From positions 1 through 50,058 of the forward strand of contig JAUSFV010000010.1 of NCBI GenBank assembly GCA_030649305.1: 50,058 nt of DNA, given 5' to 3'. Positions 1,095-37,981 of the stretch are shown here, in pieces. The notes beneath the pieces were generated by a model. It searched no databases. It was not told the origin of the DNA and saw only the letters and a program-made list of their open reading frames with translations. Each line of letters starts with the position of its first letter. Position 1 is the stretch's first letter. The position numbers and the translations under genes were made by a program. The stretch comes from a bacterium (GTDB taxonomy: Bacteria > Patescibacteriota > Minisyncoccia > Sungbacterales > GWA2-42-14).

Positions 1095-1195
1095 CCCCGT
1101 TAGAAGTCGTCTTTATATGACCGAGGCCAGTCAATTTCAGGTGGCCGCAACTTAATATAATGAACACCCAGCAAACCCAAAAACTTCTAACGGGG
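1095..1195. mobile_element. MITE-like element, CCCCGTTAGA family, copy 1 (101 bp)
   Basis: Terminal inverted repeats CCCCGTTAGAAGT / ACTTCTAACGGGG. TTCA direct repeats at 1091-1094 and 1196-1199. Interior homologous to the copy at 21774. Confidence 0.85.
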
Positions 1196-19074: not shown

Positions 19075-21774
19075 CTATAACTCCGCCCACGTCTTTCCCT
19101 CATGCGCGTCCACCGGAAACGGAACCGCGCCCTCAAAGCACGATTCCATAATTTTTTTAATTTCTGTTTTATAATGTTCTGATTTTTCTTCGCGCGCCTC
19201 AAAAATAAGTTCATCATGCACCTGCAAAAGCATCCGCAAATCCCCGCGCTTAAAATCTTCGGCAAACGCGGCCCAAATCCGTATCATGGCGCGCTTCAAA
19301 ATGTCCGCCGCCGTTCCCTGAATCGGCGCGTTTACCGCCATGCGCTCGGCTTCCGCCACTTCACGAAACCCGCCGGAAAAAAGCTGGGGCAAATACCGCC
19401 GCCTGCCGAATGCCGTCTCCACATACCCCTCGATGCGGGCTTTTTCTTTTGTCTCTGCAATATAATTCGCAATGCCCGAAAAATCGCTGAAATATTCGGA
19501 AAAAAACTTTTTTGCCTGTTCAAGCGGAATACCCGCACTCTCCGCAAACGAACGCACGCCCATGCCATAGAGAATTCCGAAGTTAAGCGCTTTTGCCGCA
19601 CGGCGCATCTCGGGCGTTACCTTTTCAATCGTCGTATCATTCACTTCCGCCGCGGTAAGCGTATGAATATCCATCCCGCGCGTGAACGCGTCAATCATCT
19701 TTTTGTCTCCCGCTAAATGTGCCGCAATCCGCAATTCCAATTGCGAATAATCAAACGCAAGAAAAGAAAAACCTTTTTCCGCAACAAACGCGGCGCGAAT
19801 TTCTTTGCCGCGCAGAGTTTTCGTAGGAATATTCTGTACATTGGGGTCAGATGAAGAAAGGCGCCCCGTAACGGTTCCTGTCTGGTGGAATGTCGTATGA
19901 ATTCTCCCGCCCAAGTCAACAAGCTTCGGAAGCGCCTCAATATACGTACTCTGTAGCTTTGCAAGTTCCCGATATTCAATAAGGAACGGAATGATGGGAT
20001 GTTCTTTCTGCATACGCGAAAGCTGGTCAATGTTGGTAGAAAGGCGTCCCGTTCCGGTTTTTTTTATGCGGGCACTCTTGCCAAGGCCAAGTTTCGTAAA
20101 AAGAATTTCCGAGAGCTGTTGCGAAGAATTGATATTAAATGATTCGCCGGCGTTCTTGTATATTTTTTCTTCAAGAATGCCTATCTCTTTTTTGGTTTTT
20201 TGCGAAAGTTTTAAAAGATACCCCGTATCAATCCCAATGCCCCAACGCTCCATTGCGGCAAGAATCACAGGAAGAGGCATTTCAAATTCTTCAAATATCC
20301 GGAGAAGCTGATTTTTTTCAAGATCATCTCGAAGGCGTCGGGCAATGCGCGGGAGAAGTGCAAGCAGGTCGCCCGTGCTTATATCAGCCACATCTTTTTG
20401 TAAAAACCACGACACAAGTTTTCCAAGCGAATAATCGCGCCTTCCGGGGTCTGCGATAAACCAAGCGAGCTTGCAATCAAAAAATGTTCCCCACCCCTCC
20501 GCAAACGGAGCTAATTTCAAAAACGCCTTAAGATCGTGCGTGATAAGGTCAACGCCTTTTGTCGCTGTAAAAAAATCTTCCGCCTCGCGGGAACGCAATA
20601 ATTTTTCCGGCACAGCGAAAAATTCCGAAGATCCCTCGGGCCTAAAGCCCGACCTAGTCCGACCGCGGACGGTCTCGGATGGCTCGGCCGTGTAGGGCAG
20701 AATAAAAAACGTTTTTGACGCCTCATCAAAAAGAAACGCGAGCCGCGTGCCGCGCAAGGAAGATACAGGAAGAAGATGCCAATCTTTGCCATTCGTAATT
20801 TTCACTTCTTTTTGTTTCGGCGCCTCCGTTTCTTTTTCAAAAAGCGTCGCCGGCCCCGGCGCTGTTCGCGTCTGTTCGTTTTCTGTTCGTGGCTGTTCGT
20901 GTAAACGTTTCAGAAAGCTCGAAAAGCCAAATTTTTCAAAAATAGGTTCGAGTTTGTCTTTATGAGATTGCATCCCCCGCCATTCGCCCTCTTCAAGCGT
21001 TACGGAAACGGGAGCGTCCCGCGCAATAAGCGCAAGTTCTTTTGAAATACGCGCGTTTTCTTCCCCCTCTTCAAGTTTTTTTCGTACAGAATCGGAAAAT
21101 GAAAATGCGCCCCTTTTTTTAAGAGCTTTGTAGGTATTTTCAACAGAGCCATATTTTTGCAAAAGTTCTGTTGCAATTTTTTCGCCAATTCCTTTAACTC
21201 CGGGGATATTATCCGAGGGGTCGCCCCGGAGCCCCTTATAATCCACAAGCATCTCGGGCCCGAAGCCAAACCGTTCGCGCACGGCTTTTTCATCATATAA
21301 AATCGTATCCGAAATGCCCTTTTTTAGGGTAAACACGGACACGCGCGGCCGCACGAGCTGGAGCGCGTCCAAATCGCCCGACACAATAACAACTTCATAA
21401 TCTTTCTTTTTTGAAAAACTTTCCGCGAGCGTCCCAATAACATCATCCGCCTCATACCCTTCTTTTTGAATGACCGGAATGCCAAATGCCTCAAGAATTT
21501 CGCGCACCATGGGAATTTGTGTGATAAGTTCATCCGGCGCTTTGGGGCGATGGGCCTTGTAGCGCTCATACGCAATATGGCGGAACGTTGGGCCCGGCAA
21601 GTCAAAGGCAGCAAACACAAAATCGGGTTCTAATTCCCCGAGCATTTTCAGAAGCATAGAGGTAAAACCGTATGCCGCCTGGCTTGGTTTGCCGTCGGGA
21701 GTGCGCAAACCCGGCAGCGCATGAAAGGCGCGATGGATAAGAGAATGGGAATCAATTAAGATAATGCGCTTCAC
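19075..21774 (-). CDS. polA: DNA polymerase I
   Basis: 5'-3' exonuclease (LIDSHSL, YEADDVIG, GDPSDN), TVTGRLSS, DYSQLELR, LQVHDEL. Start placed at GTG 21774, created by the MITE end. Confidence 0.95.
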   Translation of the reverse strand: MKRIILIDSHSLIHRAFHALPGLRTPDGKPSQAAYGFTSMLLKMLGELEPDFVFAAFDLPGPTFRHIAYERYKAHRPKAPDELITQIPMVREILEAFGIPVIQKEGYEADDVIGTLAESFSKKKDYEVVIVSGDLDALQLVRPRVSVFTLKKGISDTILYDEKAVRERFGFGPEMLVDYKGLRGDPSDNIPGVKGIGEKIATELLQKYGSVENTYKALKKRGAFSFSDSVRKKLEEGEENARISKELALIARDAPVSVTLEEGEWRGMQSHKDKLEPIFEKFGFSSFLKRLHEQPRTENEQTRTAPGPATLFEKETEAPKQKEVKITNGKDWHLLPVSSLRGTRLAFLFDEASKTFFILPYTAEPSETVRGRTRSGFRPEGSSEFFAVPEKLLRSREAEDFFTATKGVDLITHDLKAFLKLAPFAEGWGTFFDCKLAWFIADPGRRDYSLGKLVSWFLQKDVADISTGDLLALLPRIARRLRDDLEKNQLLRIFEEFEMPLPVILAAMERWGIGIDTGYLLKLSQKTKKEIGILEEKIYKNAGESFNINSSQQLSEILFTKLGLGKSARIKKTGTGRLSTNIDQLSRMQKEHPIIPFLIEYRELAKLQSTYIEALPKLVDLGGRIHTTFHQTGTVTGRLSSSDPNVQNIPTKTLRGKEIRAAFVAEKGFSFLAFDYSQLELRIAAHLAGDKKMIDAFTRGMDIHTLTAAEVNDTTIEKVTPEMRRAAKALNFGILYGMGVRSFAESAGIPLEQAKKFFSEYFSDFSGIANYIAETKEKARIEGYVETAFGRRRYLPQLFSGGFREVAEAERMAVNAPIQGTAADILKRAMIRIWAAFAEDFKRGDLRMLLQVHDELIFEAREEKSEHYKTEIKKIMESCFEGAVPFPVDAHEGKTWAEL
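20633..20688. repeat. GC-rich palindromic in-frame insertion in polA
   Basis: CCCTCGGGCCTAAAGCCCGA...GTCCGACCGCGGAC...CTCGG, read as AEPSETVRGRTRSGFRPEG. Confidence 0.55.
20861..20902. repeat. in-frame CTGTTCG(C/T) ~10-mer repeat in the polA linker
   Basis: Four units encoding HEQPRTENEQTRTA. Same family as 39606-39700 and 47978-48018. Confidence 0.75.
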
Positions 21775-21872
21775 CCCGTTAGAAATCACCTTTATATGAC
21801 TGGGACCAGCCAATTTCAGATGACAAAACTTAATGCGATAAACACCCCGCAAACTAAAAATTTCTAACGGGG
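21774..21872. mobile_element. MITE-like element, CCCCGTTAGA family, copy 2 (99 bp), in the tsaE/polA junction
   Basis: TIRs CCCCGTTAGAAAT / ATTTCTAACGGGG. TTCA duplicated at 21770-21773 and 21873-21876. Confidence 0.88.
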
Positions 21873-21873
21873 T

Positions 21874-22314
21874 TCATAAAACTTTTAACTTTCGTTCGTT
21901 AGATTTTTTTCCATGATGAAAAGAAATGCGAACAATGCTTTTGGGTAATATTTTTTTAATCCTCTCCGCCCATTCAATCACAACGATACTGTGCGGGTCT
22001 TTAAAAATTTCTTTAACGCCGAGGTGTAAAAGTTCTTTCGACGACTTAATCCGATAACAATCAATATGAACAAGGTGCCGCGCTTTGCCGAATGGATACA
22101 CGTTCATCAACACGAATGTCGGACTTTTCGGAATATCTTTAATACCAAGCCCCCGTGCAAATCCCTGTGCGAACGTAGTTTTTCCCGAACCGAGATTTCC
22201 TTCAAGCGCTACGACAAACGCCCCCGTTTTGTGGGGGGTTTTTTTGATTTCCTTGGCAAGGGCGGAGGCGATGTTTTTTGTTTGAGAAGCGCTGTGGGTA
22301 GTGATTTCAATCAT
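21874..22314 (-). CDS. tsaE: tRNA t6A biosynthesis ATPase TsaE
   Basis: LEGNLGSGKTTF, SPTF, HIDCYR, IEWAE. Start at ATG 22314. Confidence 0.93.
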   Translation of the reverse strand: MIEITTHSASQTKNIASALAKEIKKTPHKTGAFVVALEGNLGSGKTTFAQGFARGLGIKDIPKSPTFVLMNVYPFGKARHLVHIDCYRIKSSKELLHLGVKEIFKDPHSIVVIEWAERIKKILPKSIVRISFHHGKKSNERKLKVL

Positions 22315-22320
22315 AAAGCA

Positions 22321-22424
22321 ATGATGCCAATCCGATACGAATGCCATGCGAATTTGGCGAATTGCAAATCGGATAGCGTATTCGCAATTTGTAGATTGGC
22401 ATTTCATTTGTAGATTAGCATCAT
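22321..22424. repeat. CGAAT/ATTCG tandem-repeat hairpin upstream of tsaE
   Basis: Closed by ATGATGCCAATC / GATTAGCATCAT, with internal gcgaat and tttgtagatt repeats. Confidence 0.7.
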
Positions 22425-22498
22425 TTTTAGCGTAACAAAAAAAACGGGGCAGCGCATCCGTGATTGATGACAACTGCCCCATATTCGCATTCACAACC

Positions 22499-22933
22499 TT
22501 AGTGGCCGGAATTTTCGAGAGAACGGCCGAAGTTTTCGCCGTCCTCCCAGACCCGCCGGTCGTGTTCGAGCCGACTAGCGGCTAGCCCCGTACTGTGGCG
22601 TCGGTAATTCTCGAAGGTATGACTACGATAGCCATGCCTGGTGGAACTACTCAGGTAGCCGTACGCGCCGTTCCGGCACGTTGCGTAGTCGCGGCCCGAA
22701 TACCGCGAGCCGCAATACTCCGCGATTTTACGGGAGGCCTCTGTCACGTGGATAGTATCATACCCGGTGACAACCTCCACTACCCCGCCCAGTACCGCGA
22801 AGGGTAGCGCCACGGCCATATCAATCAACCCGGGAGCGCCGCGCCGCGACATCGTTGTCGCGCATCCCGTCAAACCAAAGAGGGTCATGACGACAACCAA
22901 AACGACCAACTGCGGACTTAGATCTCTCACCAT
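22499..22933 (-). CDS. hypothetical lipoprotein
   Basis: Hydrophobic signal with LTGC lipobox and an AAGGAG SD. Confidence 0.65.
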   Translation of the reverse strand: MVRDLSPQLVVLVVVMTLFGLTGCATTMSRRGAPGLIDMAVALPFAVLGGVVEVVTGYDTIHVTEASRKIAEYCGSRYSGRDYATCRNGAYGYLSSSTRHGYRSHTFENYRRHSTGLAASRLEHDRRVWEDGENFGRSLENSGH

Positions 22934-31045: not shown

Positions 31046-32218
31046 TTACGCAACCCGAAATATTTTCCGTTTCCCGACTTTTATAATATCGCCGGAAGCT
31101 ATTGCTATCTCCGCGTATGCGTCTTTCAACACTTGTTGGTTAATTTCAACGGCTCCCGGTATGATGAGGCGCCTTGCTTCACTCTTAGATAACGCAAACC
31201 CAACCTCAAGAAGAAGCTCGGGGAGTGTATATGTTTTTTTCTTTAAACGGCGCGAAGGAATATTTGAAAGATCTTTTTTAGAAAAAAGCTTTACAAAATT
31301 TTCGCAGGCTCGGCGCGCTTTTTCTTTTCCGTGATACAGGCCCGCAACGCGCTCTGCCAATTCAAGCTTCAAATCCCGTGGATTCTTACTGTCCTTGGGG
31401 TCCCACCGAGGAAGTTCATCAACGGGGACAAAAGCGGCAAGCTCTGCGTAATGGAATATAAGAGAATCAGGAATAGACATAATTTTTCCGACCATCTCGT
31501 CAGCGCTGTCGGTAAGAGCAATATAATTCCCGAGTGACTTTGACATTTTGTGCTTCCCGTCAAGTCCGATAAGGAGCGGGAGGAGCACCAAATCCTGCTC
31601 CGGATACCCTATCTTTTTTTGCAATTCGCGCCCCGCAAGCAAGTTTAATTTCTGATCCATGCCGCCAAGCTCAACATCGGCGCGCACCGCAACCGAATCG
31701 TATGCCTGCATGATCTGATACAGGGTTTCATGATGTGCCACCTCTTCTCCTTGTTCCAGGCGCCGCTTAAAATCCTCGCGGTCCAAAATGCGGTTCGTGG
31801 AAAAATTTCCGACAACACGAAGAAACTCGGCAAGTTTCATTTTGGAAAACCATTCGCTGTTGTAATGAATTTCCGCCTTTTTCAAATCAATAATCCGGCC
31901 TACTTGTTCAAAGTAGGTTTTGGCGTTTTTTTTGATTTCTGCATCCAAAAGAGGCGGACGCGCTTTTGTTTTGCCGGAGGGGTCACCGATTGCCGCGGTG
32001 TAGTCGCCGATAATAAAAACCGCCGTATGCCCTGCGTCCTGAAATTCACAAAGTTTTCTCAGGACAAGCGCGTGCCCCAAATGCAAATCGGGCGCCGTCG
32101 GATCCGCCCCTAATTTCACCCGAAGTTTTCGACCCGAGGAAAATTTCTTTTCAAGCGAAACCTGATCAATAATTTCTTCGGCAAGCGAAAAAATATCGCC
32201 GTAAAGATTCTTTTTCAC
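31046..32218 (-). CDS. tyrS: tyrosine--tRNA ligase
   Basis: GADPTAPDLHLGH (HIGH), YQIMQAYD, KMSKS, C-terminal S4 domain. The G of its GTG start belongs to the MITE. Confidence 0.96.
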   Translation of the reverse strand: MKKNLYGDIFSLAEEIIDQVSLEKKFSSGRKLRVKLGADPTAPDLHLGHALVLRKLCEFQDAGHTAVFIIGDYTAAIGDPSGKTKARPPLLDAEIKKNAKTYFEQVGRIIDLKKAEIHYNSEWFSKMKLAEFLRVVGNFSTNRILDREDFKRRLEQGEEVAHHETLYQIMQAYDSVAVRADVELGGMDQKLNLLAGRELQKKIGYPEQDLVLLPLLIGLDGKHKMSKSLGNYIALTDSADEMVGKIMSIPDSLIFHYAELAAFVPVDELPRWDPKDSKNPRDLKLELAERVAGLYHGKEKARRACENFVKLFSKKDLSNIPSRRLKKKTYTLPELLLEVGFALSKSEARRLIIPGAVEINQQVLKDAYAEIAIASGDIIKVGKRKIFRVA

Positions 32219-32343
32219 CCCGTTAGAAGTCTGCCGTTATATGGCCAACAACCAATTTCAGACAGACACGACAATAGATATAACCCCGCTTGTTTGATGT
32301 GGAAAAAATTACTAATTTTTTCCACCAAAGACTTCTAACGGGG
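32218..32343. mobile_element. MITE-like element, CCCCGTTAGA family, copy 3 (126 bp), in the tyrS start codon
   Basis: TIRs CCCCGTTAGAAGTCT / AGACTTCTAACGGGG. TTCA at 32214-32217 and 32344-32347. Extra internal hairpin TGGAAAAAATT-ACT-AATTTTTTCCA. Confidence 0.88.
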
Positions 32344-32402
32344 TTCATACTTCTTCATCATACGGCATTTCGGGTGAATTTGCAAAACATAGAAAATATG
32401 CT

Positions 32403-34949: not shown

Positions 34950-36062
34950 TCAATACGCCGGCGTATTCCGGATCGGCATGACGATATACAAAAACGAATC
35001 GTCTTCAGGATTTTTTAAAAGGAGCGGGGAGTTTTCGTCGTTCATCCCAATAAAAATATTGTCCCCGCCGCAGGACGCAATGCCGTCTGAAAAATATCGC
35101 GCATTTAGTGTTGCGGTTGCCTCCTTTCCTTTTACGGGCGTTGAAAAAGAGGAGCTTGTCGTACCAAGTTCCGGATTTACGCTCAGTACCGATATTTCGT
35201 TTTTTCCGGTTTTTAAAACAACGTCATTCAATTTTCCGGTAAGAACATTCGCCATCCGTACCCTCCGGAGAATCGCGTCTCGGGGAATAGAAAACGTAAT
35301 ACCAAAATTGTTCGGAATAATTGCCTTGTATTCGGGAAAGTTCCCGTCAATCACGCGCGATACCATGCGAGATGCGTTCCAGGAAATCATCAATTGGTTG
35401 TCGCCAACTCCGACTTCCACAGAGGCAACTTCTTCTGTGGTACCAAGCGTACGAACAATTTCTTGAGCCATTTTTAAAGGAATAATGCAAGAAAATTTTC
35501 CATTAACCTCTTTTTCAAGAAAAATTTTTTTCTCAGCAAGCCGGAAGGTGTCGGTTGCGGCAAATGTGGCATTTTTTCCCGAGGCGGCCAAATATACCCC
35601 ACCTATTTCCGGTTTAAAATCCGAAAGAGAAACCGCCGGAAGTATTTGTTCCATGGCGCTTACAAAACCCGTTCGCGAAACAAAAAACGAGGTGGTTGTT
35701 TTTATTTTTGGAATGAGCGGAAAATCATCAGAGGGTGTGGTGTTTAGTTTTGTATGTGATGTTTCTGTTTCAATAAAAATTATTCCTTGCTTTAATTCAA
35801 GTGTTACGGATTCCTCTTGAATATGTTGTAAGATACCAAAAAGGAGTTTGGGAGAAACCGCGAAAATACCTTCGCGATCCGTTTTACACGAAAAAGATGC
35901 CTCAATACCAATTTCAAGATTTGTTGCTTTTATGGTGCATGTGTTTCCTTTTGTCTCCAGAAGTATTGATTGAAGTGTCGGAAGGGTAATTTGTTTTCCT
36001 GTAAATCGTTCTGCGTTTGAGATGGCGACTACTATGTTTTTTTTGGTAGTAGTTAACTTCAT
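34950..36062 (-). CDS. dnaN: DNA polymerase III beta clamp
   Basis: ATNLEI, DDFP, ATDTFRLA, IDGNFPEY, YIVMPIR. Downstream of dnaA. Confidence 0.96.
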   Translation of the reverse strand: MKLTTTKKNIVVAISNAERFTGKQITLPTLQSILLETKGNTCTIKATNLEIGIEASFSCKTDREGIFAVSPKLLFGILQHIQEESVTLELKQGIIFIETETSHTKLNTTPSDDFPLIPKIKTTTSFFVSRTGFVSAMEQILPAVSLSDFKPEIGGVYLAASGKNATFAATDTFRLAEKKIFLEKEVNGKFSCIIPLKMAQEIVRTLGTTEEVASVEVGVGDNQLMISWNASRMVSRVIDGNFPEYKAIIPNNFGITFSIPRDAILRRVRMANVLTGKLNDVVLKTGKNEISVLSVNPELGTTSSSFSTPVKGKEATATLNARYFSDGIASCGGDNIFIGMNDENSPLLLKNPEDDSFLYIVMPIRNTPAY

Positions 36063-37874: not shown

Positions 37875-37981
37875 CCCCGTTAGAAGTTTAGAACTCCTCG
37901 TCTTAAGAACAATAAAGAGGCAGTTCGGTCGTATTGGATAGATTCTGGATACGTTTATCGTGCGTTTGACTTCTAACGGGG
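37875..37981. mobile_element. MITE-like element, CCCCGTTAGA family, copy 4 (107 bp), between dnaA and rpmH
   Basis: TIRs CCCCGTTAGAAGT / ACTTCTAACGGGG. Flanks TCAG / TCAA (imperfect duplication). Interior differs from copies 1-3. Confidence 0.8.

Follow-up and report, generated by a model that had tools for sequence, protein, structure and literature searches.

The locus considered here lies in a window of 50,058 nt (the whole stretch of DNA that was analyzed; contig JAUSFV010000010.1 of assembly GCA_030649305.1), which belongs to a 1.02-Mb, 54-contig genome assembly of an ultra-small bacterium from groundwater, a member of the candidate phyla radiation (CPR; Patescibacteria). On its minus strand, tsaE is followed by polA, and the border between the two genes is occupied by a 99-bp element (21774-21872) that resembles a MITE (miniature inverted-repeat transposable element). 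The element has no open reading frame (ORF) and ends in perfect 13-bp terminal inverted repeats, CCCCGTTAGAAAT and ATTTCTAACGGGG. Along the minus strand the junction reads ...GTTTT ATGAA, then CCCCGTTAGAAAT ... ATTTCTAACGGGG, then TGAA GCGC ATT ATC. The flanks are the two copies of a duplicated 4-bp target, TGAA when read on the minus strand and TTCA on the plus strand: a tsaE-proximal copy at 21873-21876, which contains the tsaE stop codon, and a gene-proximal copy at 21770-21773. The original polA ATG (21875-21877), which overlaps the tsaE stop as ATGA, is now orphaned and opens a leader ORF, MNPVRNF-stop (21854-21877), that crosses the left arm of the element. A rebuilt GTG (21772-21774), composed of the terminal G of the element and the TG of the duplication, stands at the head of polA (19075-21774, 899 codons counted from the GTG), the single copy of this gene in the assembly. 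The tsaE ORF, taken at its mechanical limits, spans 21874-22494 and has its TGA stop at 21876-21874. An earlier note on this DNA had described the 99-bp element with TTCA flanks rebuilding GTG-AAG-CGC while tsaE keeps its TGA, and had translated the old ATG as MNPVRNF-stop; re-reading and translating the sequence gave the same result.

The assignment of tsaE is based on a score of 107 bits against TIGR00150 in a profile search of ORF 21874-22494. The GTG-initiated product is DNA polymerase I, and its residue 2 meets position 1 of the 889-position profile NF004397. Because the last G of the element and the duplicated TG make GTG-AAG-CGC, the polA frame and N-terminus are kept and PolA is unchanged; orthologs start with MK[KR]-[LI]ILID at the same residue. 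RNA of the minus strand is predicted to fold with the two arms paired (-40.3 kcal/mol, z = -4.0). An Rfam scan of 21000-22600 with E up to 1 returned just two chance-level matches. With up to two mismatches allowed, the window contains 10 occurrences of the arm 13-mer where 1.55 would be expected; none of 100 shuffled sequences reached 10, so the repeat goes beyond chance.

An uninterrupted tsaE-ATGA-polA junction exists in relatives. Of 104 loci, 16 have a P-loop ORF whose end coincides with the start of polA (15 with ATGA, one with GTGA), and all eight of the upstream ORFs tested at these overlaps are TsaE (TIGR00150); the overlap between tsaE stop and polA start that the earlier note had reconstructed by removing the element is thus seen intact. 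The nearest in-frame polA start is ATG in 23 and TTG in two of 25 relatives from the Genome Taxonomy Database (GTDB). Among 79 polA orthologs from metagenomes it is ATG in 75, GTG in three and TTG in one, with ATGAA in 35. A GTG start of polA in relatives, which according to the earlier note would have spoken against an insertion into ATG, is therefore absent from the GTDB set and rare in the metagenomes. In total, over 100 polA orthologs are without the element, all of them at most 67% identical. Both the polA insertion and a second one in the window, at tyrS, are also carried in contigs of an independent study.

The tyrS copy (32218-32343, minus strand) reads agtATGAA, element, TGAAAAAG, and the GTG at the junction opens tyrS (31046-32218). 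Apparent joints near 32230-32330 were considered as empty sites and ruled out, as they are cross-matches of other copies. Two further copies lie in the window. One (1095-1195, minus strand) is the nearest relative of the polA copy, with 75% inner identity and a TTCA duplication, and is located between divergent genes, off start codons. The other (37875-37981, strand not assigned) has the imperfect duplication TCAG / TCAA.

A search with the arm core revealed 38 arm pairs no more than 400 bp apart in the 1.02-Mb genome. Four of these are palindromes of 29-34 bp, and 34 are at least 94 bp long (one of the latter mis-joins two nested copies on contig C16). Once a few additions made by eye are included, the genome has about 37 long copies, with lengths of 94-137 bp. 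In 17 of these about 37 long copies, a long ORF begins at the last base of the element followed by TG: 14 arms end in G and produce GTG, while three end in A (TCCC...GGGA) and produce ATG. Genes with rebuilt starts include adk, tyrS, pilM, a DUF427 gene, a CBS-PAS histidine kinase, an NrtR-type Nudix regulator and a sortase. The first Pfam domains lie close to the rebuilt N-termini (ADK from residue 11, DUF427 from 1, CBS from 6 and PilM from 18). Moreover, polA, tyrS and adk are single-copy and must therefore be working genes rather than dead ones.

Two apparent junction starts turned out to be in-frame insertions (110 + 4 = 114 bp) that are read through without a stop, and both were left out of the start-site count. 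They are located on contig C25 (19386-19495 and 38804-38913), one in the ATP synthase gamma gene (atpG) and the other in the gene for a 777-residue DsbD_TM membrane protein. The 110-bp subfamily has six members, each exactly 110 bp long. A nested insertion was found at C16:35849-36066, where a TTGA-flanked copy of the 110-bp type is split by a TCCC...GGGA copy (35912-36013) with CTTCG at both sides. The 29-34 bp palindromes (C16:15430-15459, C25:20732-20760, C3:8655-8688 and C23:7989-8021) share the arm core (CCCCGTTAGAT...ATCTAACGGGG) and have no duplication; two of them are in frame inside genes that look like dnaG and atpD. These palindromes may be minimal forms of the element.

The positions of the copies are strongly biased. 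As background we used the 11,528 TGAA sites outside elements, 131-238 of them on candidate ATG starts and 1,396 intergenic, as judged from our own rough gene set for this one genome (981 genes, 84% coding). TGAA-flanked copies lie on gene starts in 14 of 15 cases, compared with 14.6% expected among start-plus-intergenic TGAA sites (P = 2.5e-11); the single exception is the copy at 1095-1195. Copies at ATGAA lie at starts in 12 of 12 cases, with 36% expected (P = 5e-6). We also clustered the inner sequences blind to position at 60% identity or more, a level above the shuffled maximum of 57%. In three clusters comprising 11 copies, all 11 are TGAA-flanked, whereas in the six-member 110-bp cluster none is. 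Since subfamilies defined by sequence keep to one target type, tolerance alone is insufficient to account for the bias, and an enzyme with a loose TNNA preference combined with survivorship does not predict such subfamily-specific targets.

To see the distribution of the family in the phylum, we scanned one genome per species with a single arm variant and 70-100 nt between arms; the counts in this paragraph refer to the matches listed. The scan yielded at least 119 copies in at least 118 loci, distributed over Saccharibacteria, Moran-, Uhr-, Kaiser-, Portnoy- and Gribaldobacteria, the Kazan group and others. A perfect 4-bp duplication flanks 74 of the 119 copies. The duplication types are TCAA/TTGA (33), TGAA/TTCA (13), TAAA/TTTA (9), CATA/TATG (8) and TATA (4), so nearly all conform to TNNA. 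In 17 of the 119 copies the junction forms a start codon that opens an ORF of 60 codons or more, and 12 of these have both the old start codon and a perfect duplication; the start-hit host genes elsewhere, named by eye from their N-termini, are mreB-, rplD-, rpmC- and lexA-like. In 11 copies the duplication contains ATG. The family is met most often at TTGA within a TTGACA -35 box, where the duplication restores the box beside the gene: 30 copies have TTGA with a TAnnnT box 16-18 nt past the hexamer, and five more have TTGAC without that box. In the pooled TTGA-type copies, TTGAC occurs in 38 of 44 and a -10 box in 34 of 44, compared with 22% and 13% of the intergenic TTGA sites of our genome. 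Start codons account for about a quarter of the copies and -35 boxes for about 30%; the remaining 56 copies fall outside the start and -35 classes. Copies at -35 boxes are also present in the genome analyzed here (e.g. C51:13518-13627 and C46:7688-7798). TATA-type duplications read TATACT or TATACA and resemble -10 boxes. The enrichment of insertions in start codons anticipated by the earlier note is therefore borne out, but the rule that it offered, a TGAA target combined with a G-ending arm, is too narrow: A-ending arms rebuild ATG, and TGAA is one of several TNNA targets, the commonest being TTGA in -35 boxes.

Full-length relatives of about 280 bp carry the gene for a 94-residue GIY-YIG nuclease between the same arms. 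The representative in this genome is a 277-bp copy with TCCC...GGGA arms (C41:6593-6869). Its ORF encodes a GIY-YIG protein (PF01541, 56.5 bits, over the cut-off), for which the nearest solved structure is PDB 1zg2, a UPF0213 protein (E = 8e-7). The element is inserted between hrcA- and grpE-like genes (named by eye), with ATGA overlaps at both sides. The nuclease ORF begins at the old ATG overlapping the upstream stop and ends ...L-T-G-TGA, where the L-T-G codons are the right arm and the stop is the duplicated TGA. This TGA overlaps the rebuilt ATG of a downstream 184-codon ORF; the nuclease and the host gene therefore form an ATGA/GTGA-coupled pair.

Of the 12 full-length elements, nine adjoin a long ORF at [A/G]TG, and in seven the flank provides the TGA that closes the conserved C-terminal codons (three by script, the rest by reading the sequences). 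Nuclease homologs (E of 1e-8 or lower) were detected in 147 of 301 sampled Patescibacteria genomes. The type of arm follows nuclease similarity, the closest homologs having CCCGTTAGA-type arms and the distant ones other inverted repeats. In another CPR genome (L203, 1100-1470), a full-length element with A-ending arms is inserted independently on the polA start, with a degenerate, ORF-less second copy in tandem. ATGAA precedes each of the two, as expected if an arm ending in A restores this target in full. The full-length element at L264:1470-1790 is flanked by a 10-bp direct repeat (TGGCCGCTGA) that takes in the host start codon, rather than by a 4-bp one. Four more small GIY-YIG genes of our genome (C16:19583-19795, C37:11136-11348, C47:7681-7887 and C17:6382-6600) are located between other C-rich/G-rich inverted repeats (e.g. 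CCCCCACACCAAATT, with TTTA at both sides), so that the layout of a nuclease between arms recurs.

Among 306 unambiguous ATG starts of this genome, only 21% have a 4-mer word resembling a Shine-Dalgarno (SD) sequence, compared with a background of 10%, while 25% have a -10-like box 5-9 nt upstream of ATG, compared with 6.6%. This is a leaderless-type layout and suggests that many mRNAs here are leaderless. As most genes lack an SD sequence, use of the GTG at the junction is plausible. Several of the invaded starts, that of tyrS included, are of the leaderless type. A promoter-like site on the minus strand (TTGCAA-17-TATGAT, 32346-32386) ends 8 nt before the old tyrS ATG, and the ancestral tyrS mRNA was probably leaderless. 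If transcribed from upstream, the copies are predicted to fold through their arms (between -40 and -51 kcal/mol, with z between -3.5 and -6.2), with the G of GTG forming the last stem pair. The ATG at -5 is kept in 12 of the 14 G-ending start-site copies, and the other two have an in-frame ATG at the next codon upstream, so that the left arm is in every case crossed by a leader ORF (M-N-P-V-R...). Ribosomes starting at the old ATG would then be expected to open the hairpin that holds the G of GTG. In the full-length form the nuclease itself would act as the leader, with coupling through the stop-start overlap. We also considered the element as a promoter carrier and rejected this as the main explanation, since the conserved inner box has the sequence TATAAT in only two of the 14 start-site copies and the strict sigma-70 scan was empty for the polA and tyrS copies.

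Taken together, these data argue with considerable confidence that the 99-bp stretch belongs, as a non-autonomous and MITE-like member, to a family that is spread across CPR/Patescibacteria and rebuilds the signals it enters. At polA, the element would have entered the TGAA of an ATGAA shared by the end of tsaE and the beginning of polA. Of the two copies of the duplication, the left one keeps the tsaE stop, and the right one together with the G of the element gives GTG-AAG-CGC. The general habit of the family is to settle directly upstream of a signal that the duplication regenerates. Such signals are start codons (TGAA, TGGA and TATG targets, with G-ending arms giving GTG and A-ending ones ATG) and TTGACA -35 boxes (TTGA target).

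Several observations weigh against this interpretation. The inner sequences of the copies are at most 84% alike, and thus there has been no recent burst. The closest polA relatives, from GTDB representatives and a metagenome scan with the PolA N-terminus, are just 60-67% identical, so there is no near-isogenic empty site; a genome of the same genus is absent among the GTDB representatives. Contigs of two runs, one of which comes from an independent study, cross the polA and tyrS copies without gaps and show no empty-site allele, with the reservation that contigs drop rare variants. The phylum-wide figures have the scope described above (one arm variant, 70-100 nt between arms), and related genomes in that scan are dependent samples; similarly, the backgrounds for target preference rest on the rough gene calls. 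At polA, the frame is open across the entire element and offers further in-frame starts: a TTG at 21852, from which the mechanical ORF of 925 aa begins, and a further GTG that precedes the junction by five codons. No promoter was detected within the polA or tyrS copies by the strict sigma-70 scan. As for the full-length elements, the old start is in frame with the nuclease in only three of 12, and the left duplication is absent at several.

A more far-reaching interpretation, which we put forward tentatively, is that the family may represent an undescribed class of prokaryotic transposons, moved by the 94-residue GIY-YIG nuclease, living on expression signals, with a target encoded by the element, and leaving ORF-less derivatives in essential CPR genes. 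The GIY-YIG protein would be the mobilizing enzyme. Such a transposon would enter start codons at a word that contains TGA, and -35 boxes at their TTGA. It could borrow the host start codon and the stop-start overlap to express its nuclease, as in the hrcA-nuclease-grpE arrangement, and the host gene would be handed a rebuilt ATG or GTG from the last base of the element. Subfamilies would keep to one target because its choice is encoded in the element. A search for a conventional insertion sequence (IS) as partner was negative: arm pairs 180-3500 bp apart with matching flanks enclose ordinary or GIY-YIG genes only. DDE_Tnp_1 and DDE_3 have no matches in the genome, and such arms are missing from the 400 nt around its one rve gene and around its three Y1_Tnp genes. 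The Y1_Tnp (IS200/RAYT-like) genes lie at C4:1498-2193, C23:376-1248 and C37:3975-4697 (approximate plus-strand coordinates of a minus-strand gene), and may serve other repeat families of the genome.

It might be argued that the copies are kept mainly as regulatory modules of the host, acting as a protein-binding palindrome or an RNA hairpin, so that their positions reflect function and their mobility is old or over. The arms do behave as if constrained. Each of the arm positions 1-13 is conserved in 30-34 of 34 copies (position 5 is the lowest with 30, the others reach 33-34), and the variable positions 1, 11, 12 and 13 covary across both arms in 33-34 of 34, while the inner parts have diverged. 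What is maintained is either arm pairing or recognition by a protein, and this keeps the domesticated-regulator explanation alive. The identical 13-mer arms in very distant CPR lineages and the insertions fixed in two populations point in the same direction. However, the perfect duplication in 74 of the 119 copies among the matches listed, the nested copy, the in-frame copies in atpG and another gene and the nuclease-bearing forms are hallmarks of selfish DNA. In addition, no regulator is linked to these arms here, and the element is missing from more than 100 polA orthologs. We therefore regard a mainly regulatory role as improbable.

A second alternative concerns the origin of the start-codon copies, which could be remnants of full-length nuclease elements that decayed in place. 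Such an origin would account for the constant orientation of the conserved inner module towards the gene and for the spread of lengths, which run from 95 to 130 bp and include a 210-bp intermediate whose end is at 9526 on contig C36. Yet none of 10 start-site copies aligns above the shuffled maximum to the element at L143, the sole full-length one with the same arm variant, and decay in place appears unlikely.

A third possibility is that PolA starts at an in-frame codon inside the element, with a short N-terminal extension, or by some other reinitiation, and that the rebuilt GTG is incidental. The open frame with its mechanical ORF 19075-21852 from TTG is compatible with this, as is the position of the upstream GTG within AAAGGTGAT, an SD-like word. 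The polA copy is, however, unusual in this respect. Of the 13 other G-ending start-site copies, 12 have no gene-strand frame open across the element, and the exception is a frame that has no flanking codons, whereas [G/A]TG at the junction with a long ORF is common to all 14 G-ending and three A-ending start-site copies. Furthermore, both the PolA profile and the MK[KR]-[LI]ILID start of orthologs coincide with the GTG product, which makes an internal start quite doubtful. It is similarly hard to credit that the mover is a tyrosine HUH enzyme (IS200/RAYT-like) or another host enzyme, with an element-encoded target and a duplication made of the target word and the element's own end: the three Y1_Tnp genes and the subfamily-specific flanks (11 of 11 TGAA versus 0 of 6), which a simple TNNA cutter does not predict, would fit, but these arms do not border the Y1_Tnp genes, 12 elements of different genomes have GIY-YIG genes inside the arms, arm type tracks nuclease similarity, and IS200/IS605 and REPIN elements are not known to have such terminal inverted repeats or to make a duplication.

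If the family is what we propose, selfish DNA would persist in the most compact bacterial genomes by inserting where its own end and the duplication restore the interrupted signal. There is also a practical consequence, as gene callers will misplace start codons in essential genes of the CPR; here, the mechanical ORF of polA begins inside the element. The signature to look for is a GTG start just after ...CTAACGGGG. Through the link to -35 boxes and leaderless-type starts, promoters and the initiation of translation become accessible to study in a phylum that is uncultured. Should the GIY-YIG protein indeed mobilize the elements, it would be a new catalytic class among prokaryotic transposases and would give the widespread UPF0213/COG2827 proteins a function. 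In the literature we found no published description of this family or of MITEs that rebuild start codons; GIY-YIG insertions may be tabulated in the supplements of PMC11270868 and PMC12455944.

Among known systems, the elements share with bacterial MITEs the features by which the latter are recognized: terminal inverted repeats, a fixed 4-bp duplication, short length, many copies and no coding capacity. The full-length partners that bear these arms code for a GIY-YIG nuclease, which is not a known transposase. Correia elements of Neisseria have 26-bp arms and a TA duplication; to our knowledge they are confined to Neisseria, and neither placement at start codons nor supply of a start base has been reported for them. 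In contrast, the family described here has a 4-bp TNNA duplication, CCCCGTTAGAA-type arms and ORF-bearing relatives that encode a GIY-YIG protein. Rickettsia palindromic elements (RPEs) are palindromic repeats tolerated in frame inside genes, similar to the 110-bp subfamily, which is read through in atpG and in the gene for the 777-residue membrane protein. We know of no targeting of start codons or -35 boxes by RPEs and of no nuclease partner. In the part of PMC3184786 that was consulted, Correia elements (CREE) are described as ~100-150 bp long, with terminal inverted repeats, many copies beside genes and arms that form RNA hairpins, and as altering the expression of neighbors. Accordingly, the likeness extends to size, terminal inverted repeats, many copies near genes and hairpin-folding arms. 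The same part of that source reports that Neisseria REP2 and Borrelia IR repeats are fused to the 5' ends of genes and bring a start codon, REP2 being directly upstream of 14 genes. REP2 has no terminal inverted repeats and brings a whole promoter, ribosome-binding site and ATG, whereas here the element contributes only the first base of the codon and the duplicated target supplies the other two.

With the REP/REPIN-RAYT systems the family shares dispersed, hairpin-forming palindromic doublets and a dedicated single-copy enzyme. In those systems the RAYT gene is flanked by its own REPs and, as far as we know, REPINs make no target duplication; here the RAYT-like genes are without these arms and a duplication is present. 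Members of IS200/IS605 have subterminal hairpins and insert 3' of a fixed word, and are not known to have inverted ends or a duplication. The inverted ends and matching flanks speak against placing our elements among them; the subfamily-specific flanks resemble element-encoded targeting. Classical GIY-YIG homing endonucleases recognize and cut one long cognate site and are copied by homologous repair, and they are not known to have arms or to leave a duplication. Full-length relatives, and not the polA copy, share the GIY-YIG catalytic domain with them, but the host sites here have just 4-6 bases in common, and arms and a 4-bp duplication are present. GIY-YIG genes are also found in rRNA insertions of CPR bacteria, which the consulted part of PMC11270868 describes as not being introns and seemingly not spreading by homing. 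That description, as far as the same part goes, is without inverted-repeat arms, a 4-bp duplication or placement at start codons or -35 boxes. The closest counterparts of the nuclease itself are the small free-standing GIY-YIG genes of UPF0213/COG2827 (PDB 1zg2 and 1ywl), as indicated by the matches of the full-length-element protein to PF01541 and 1zg2.

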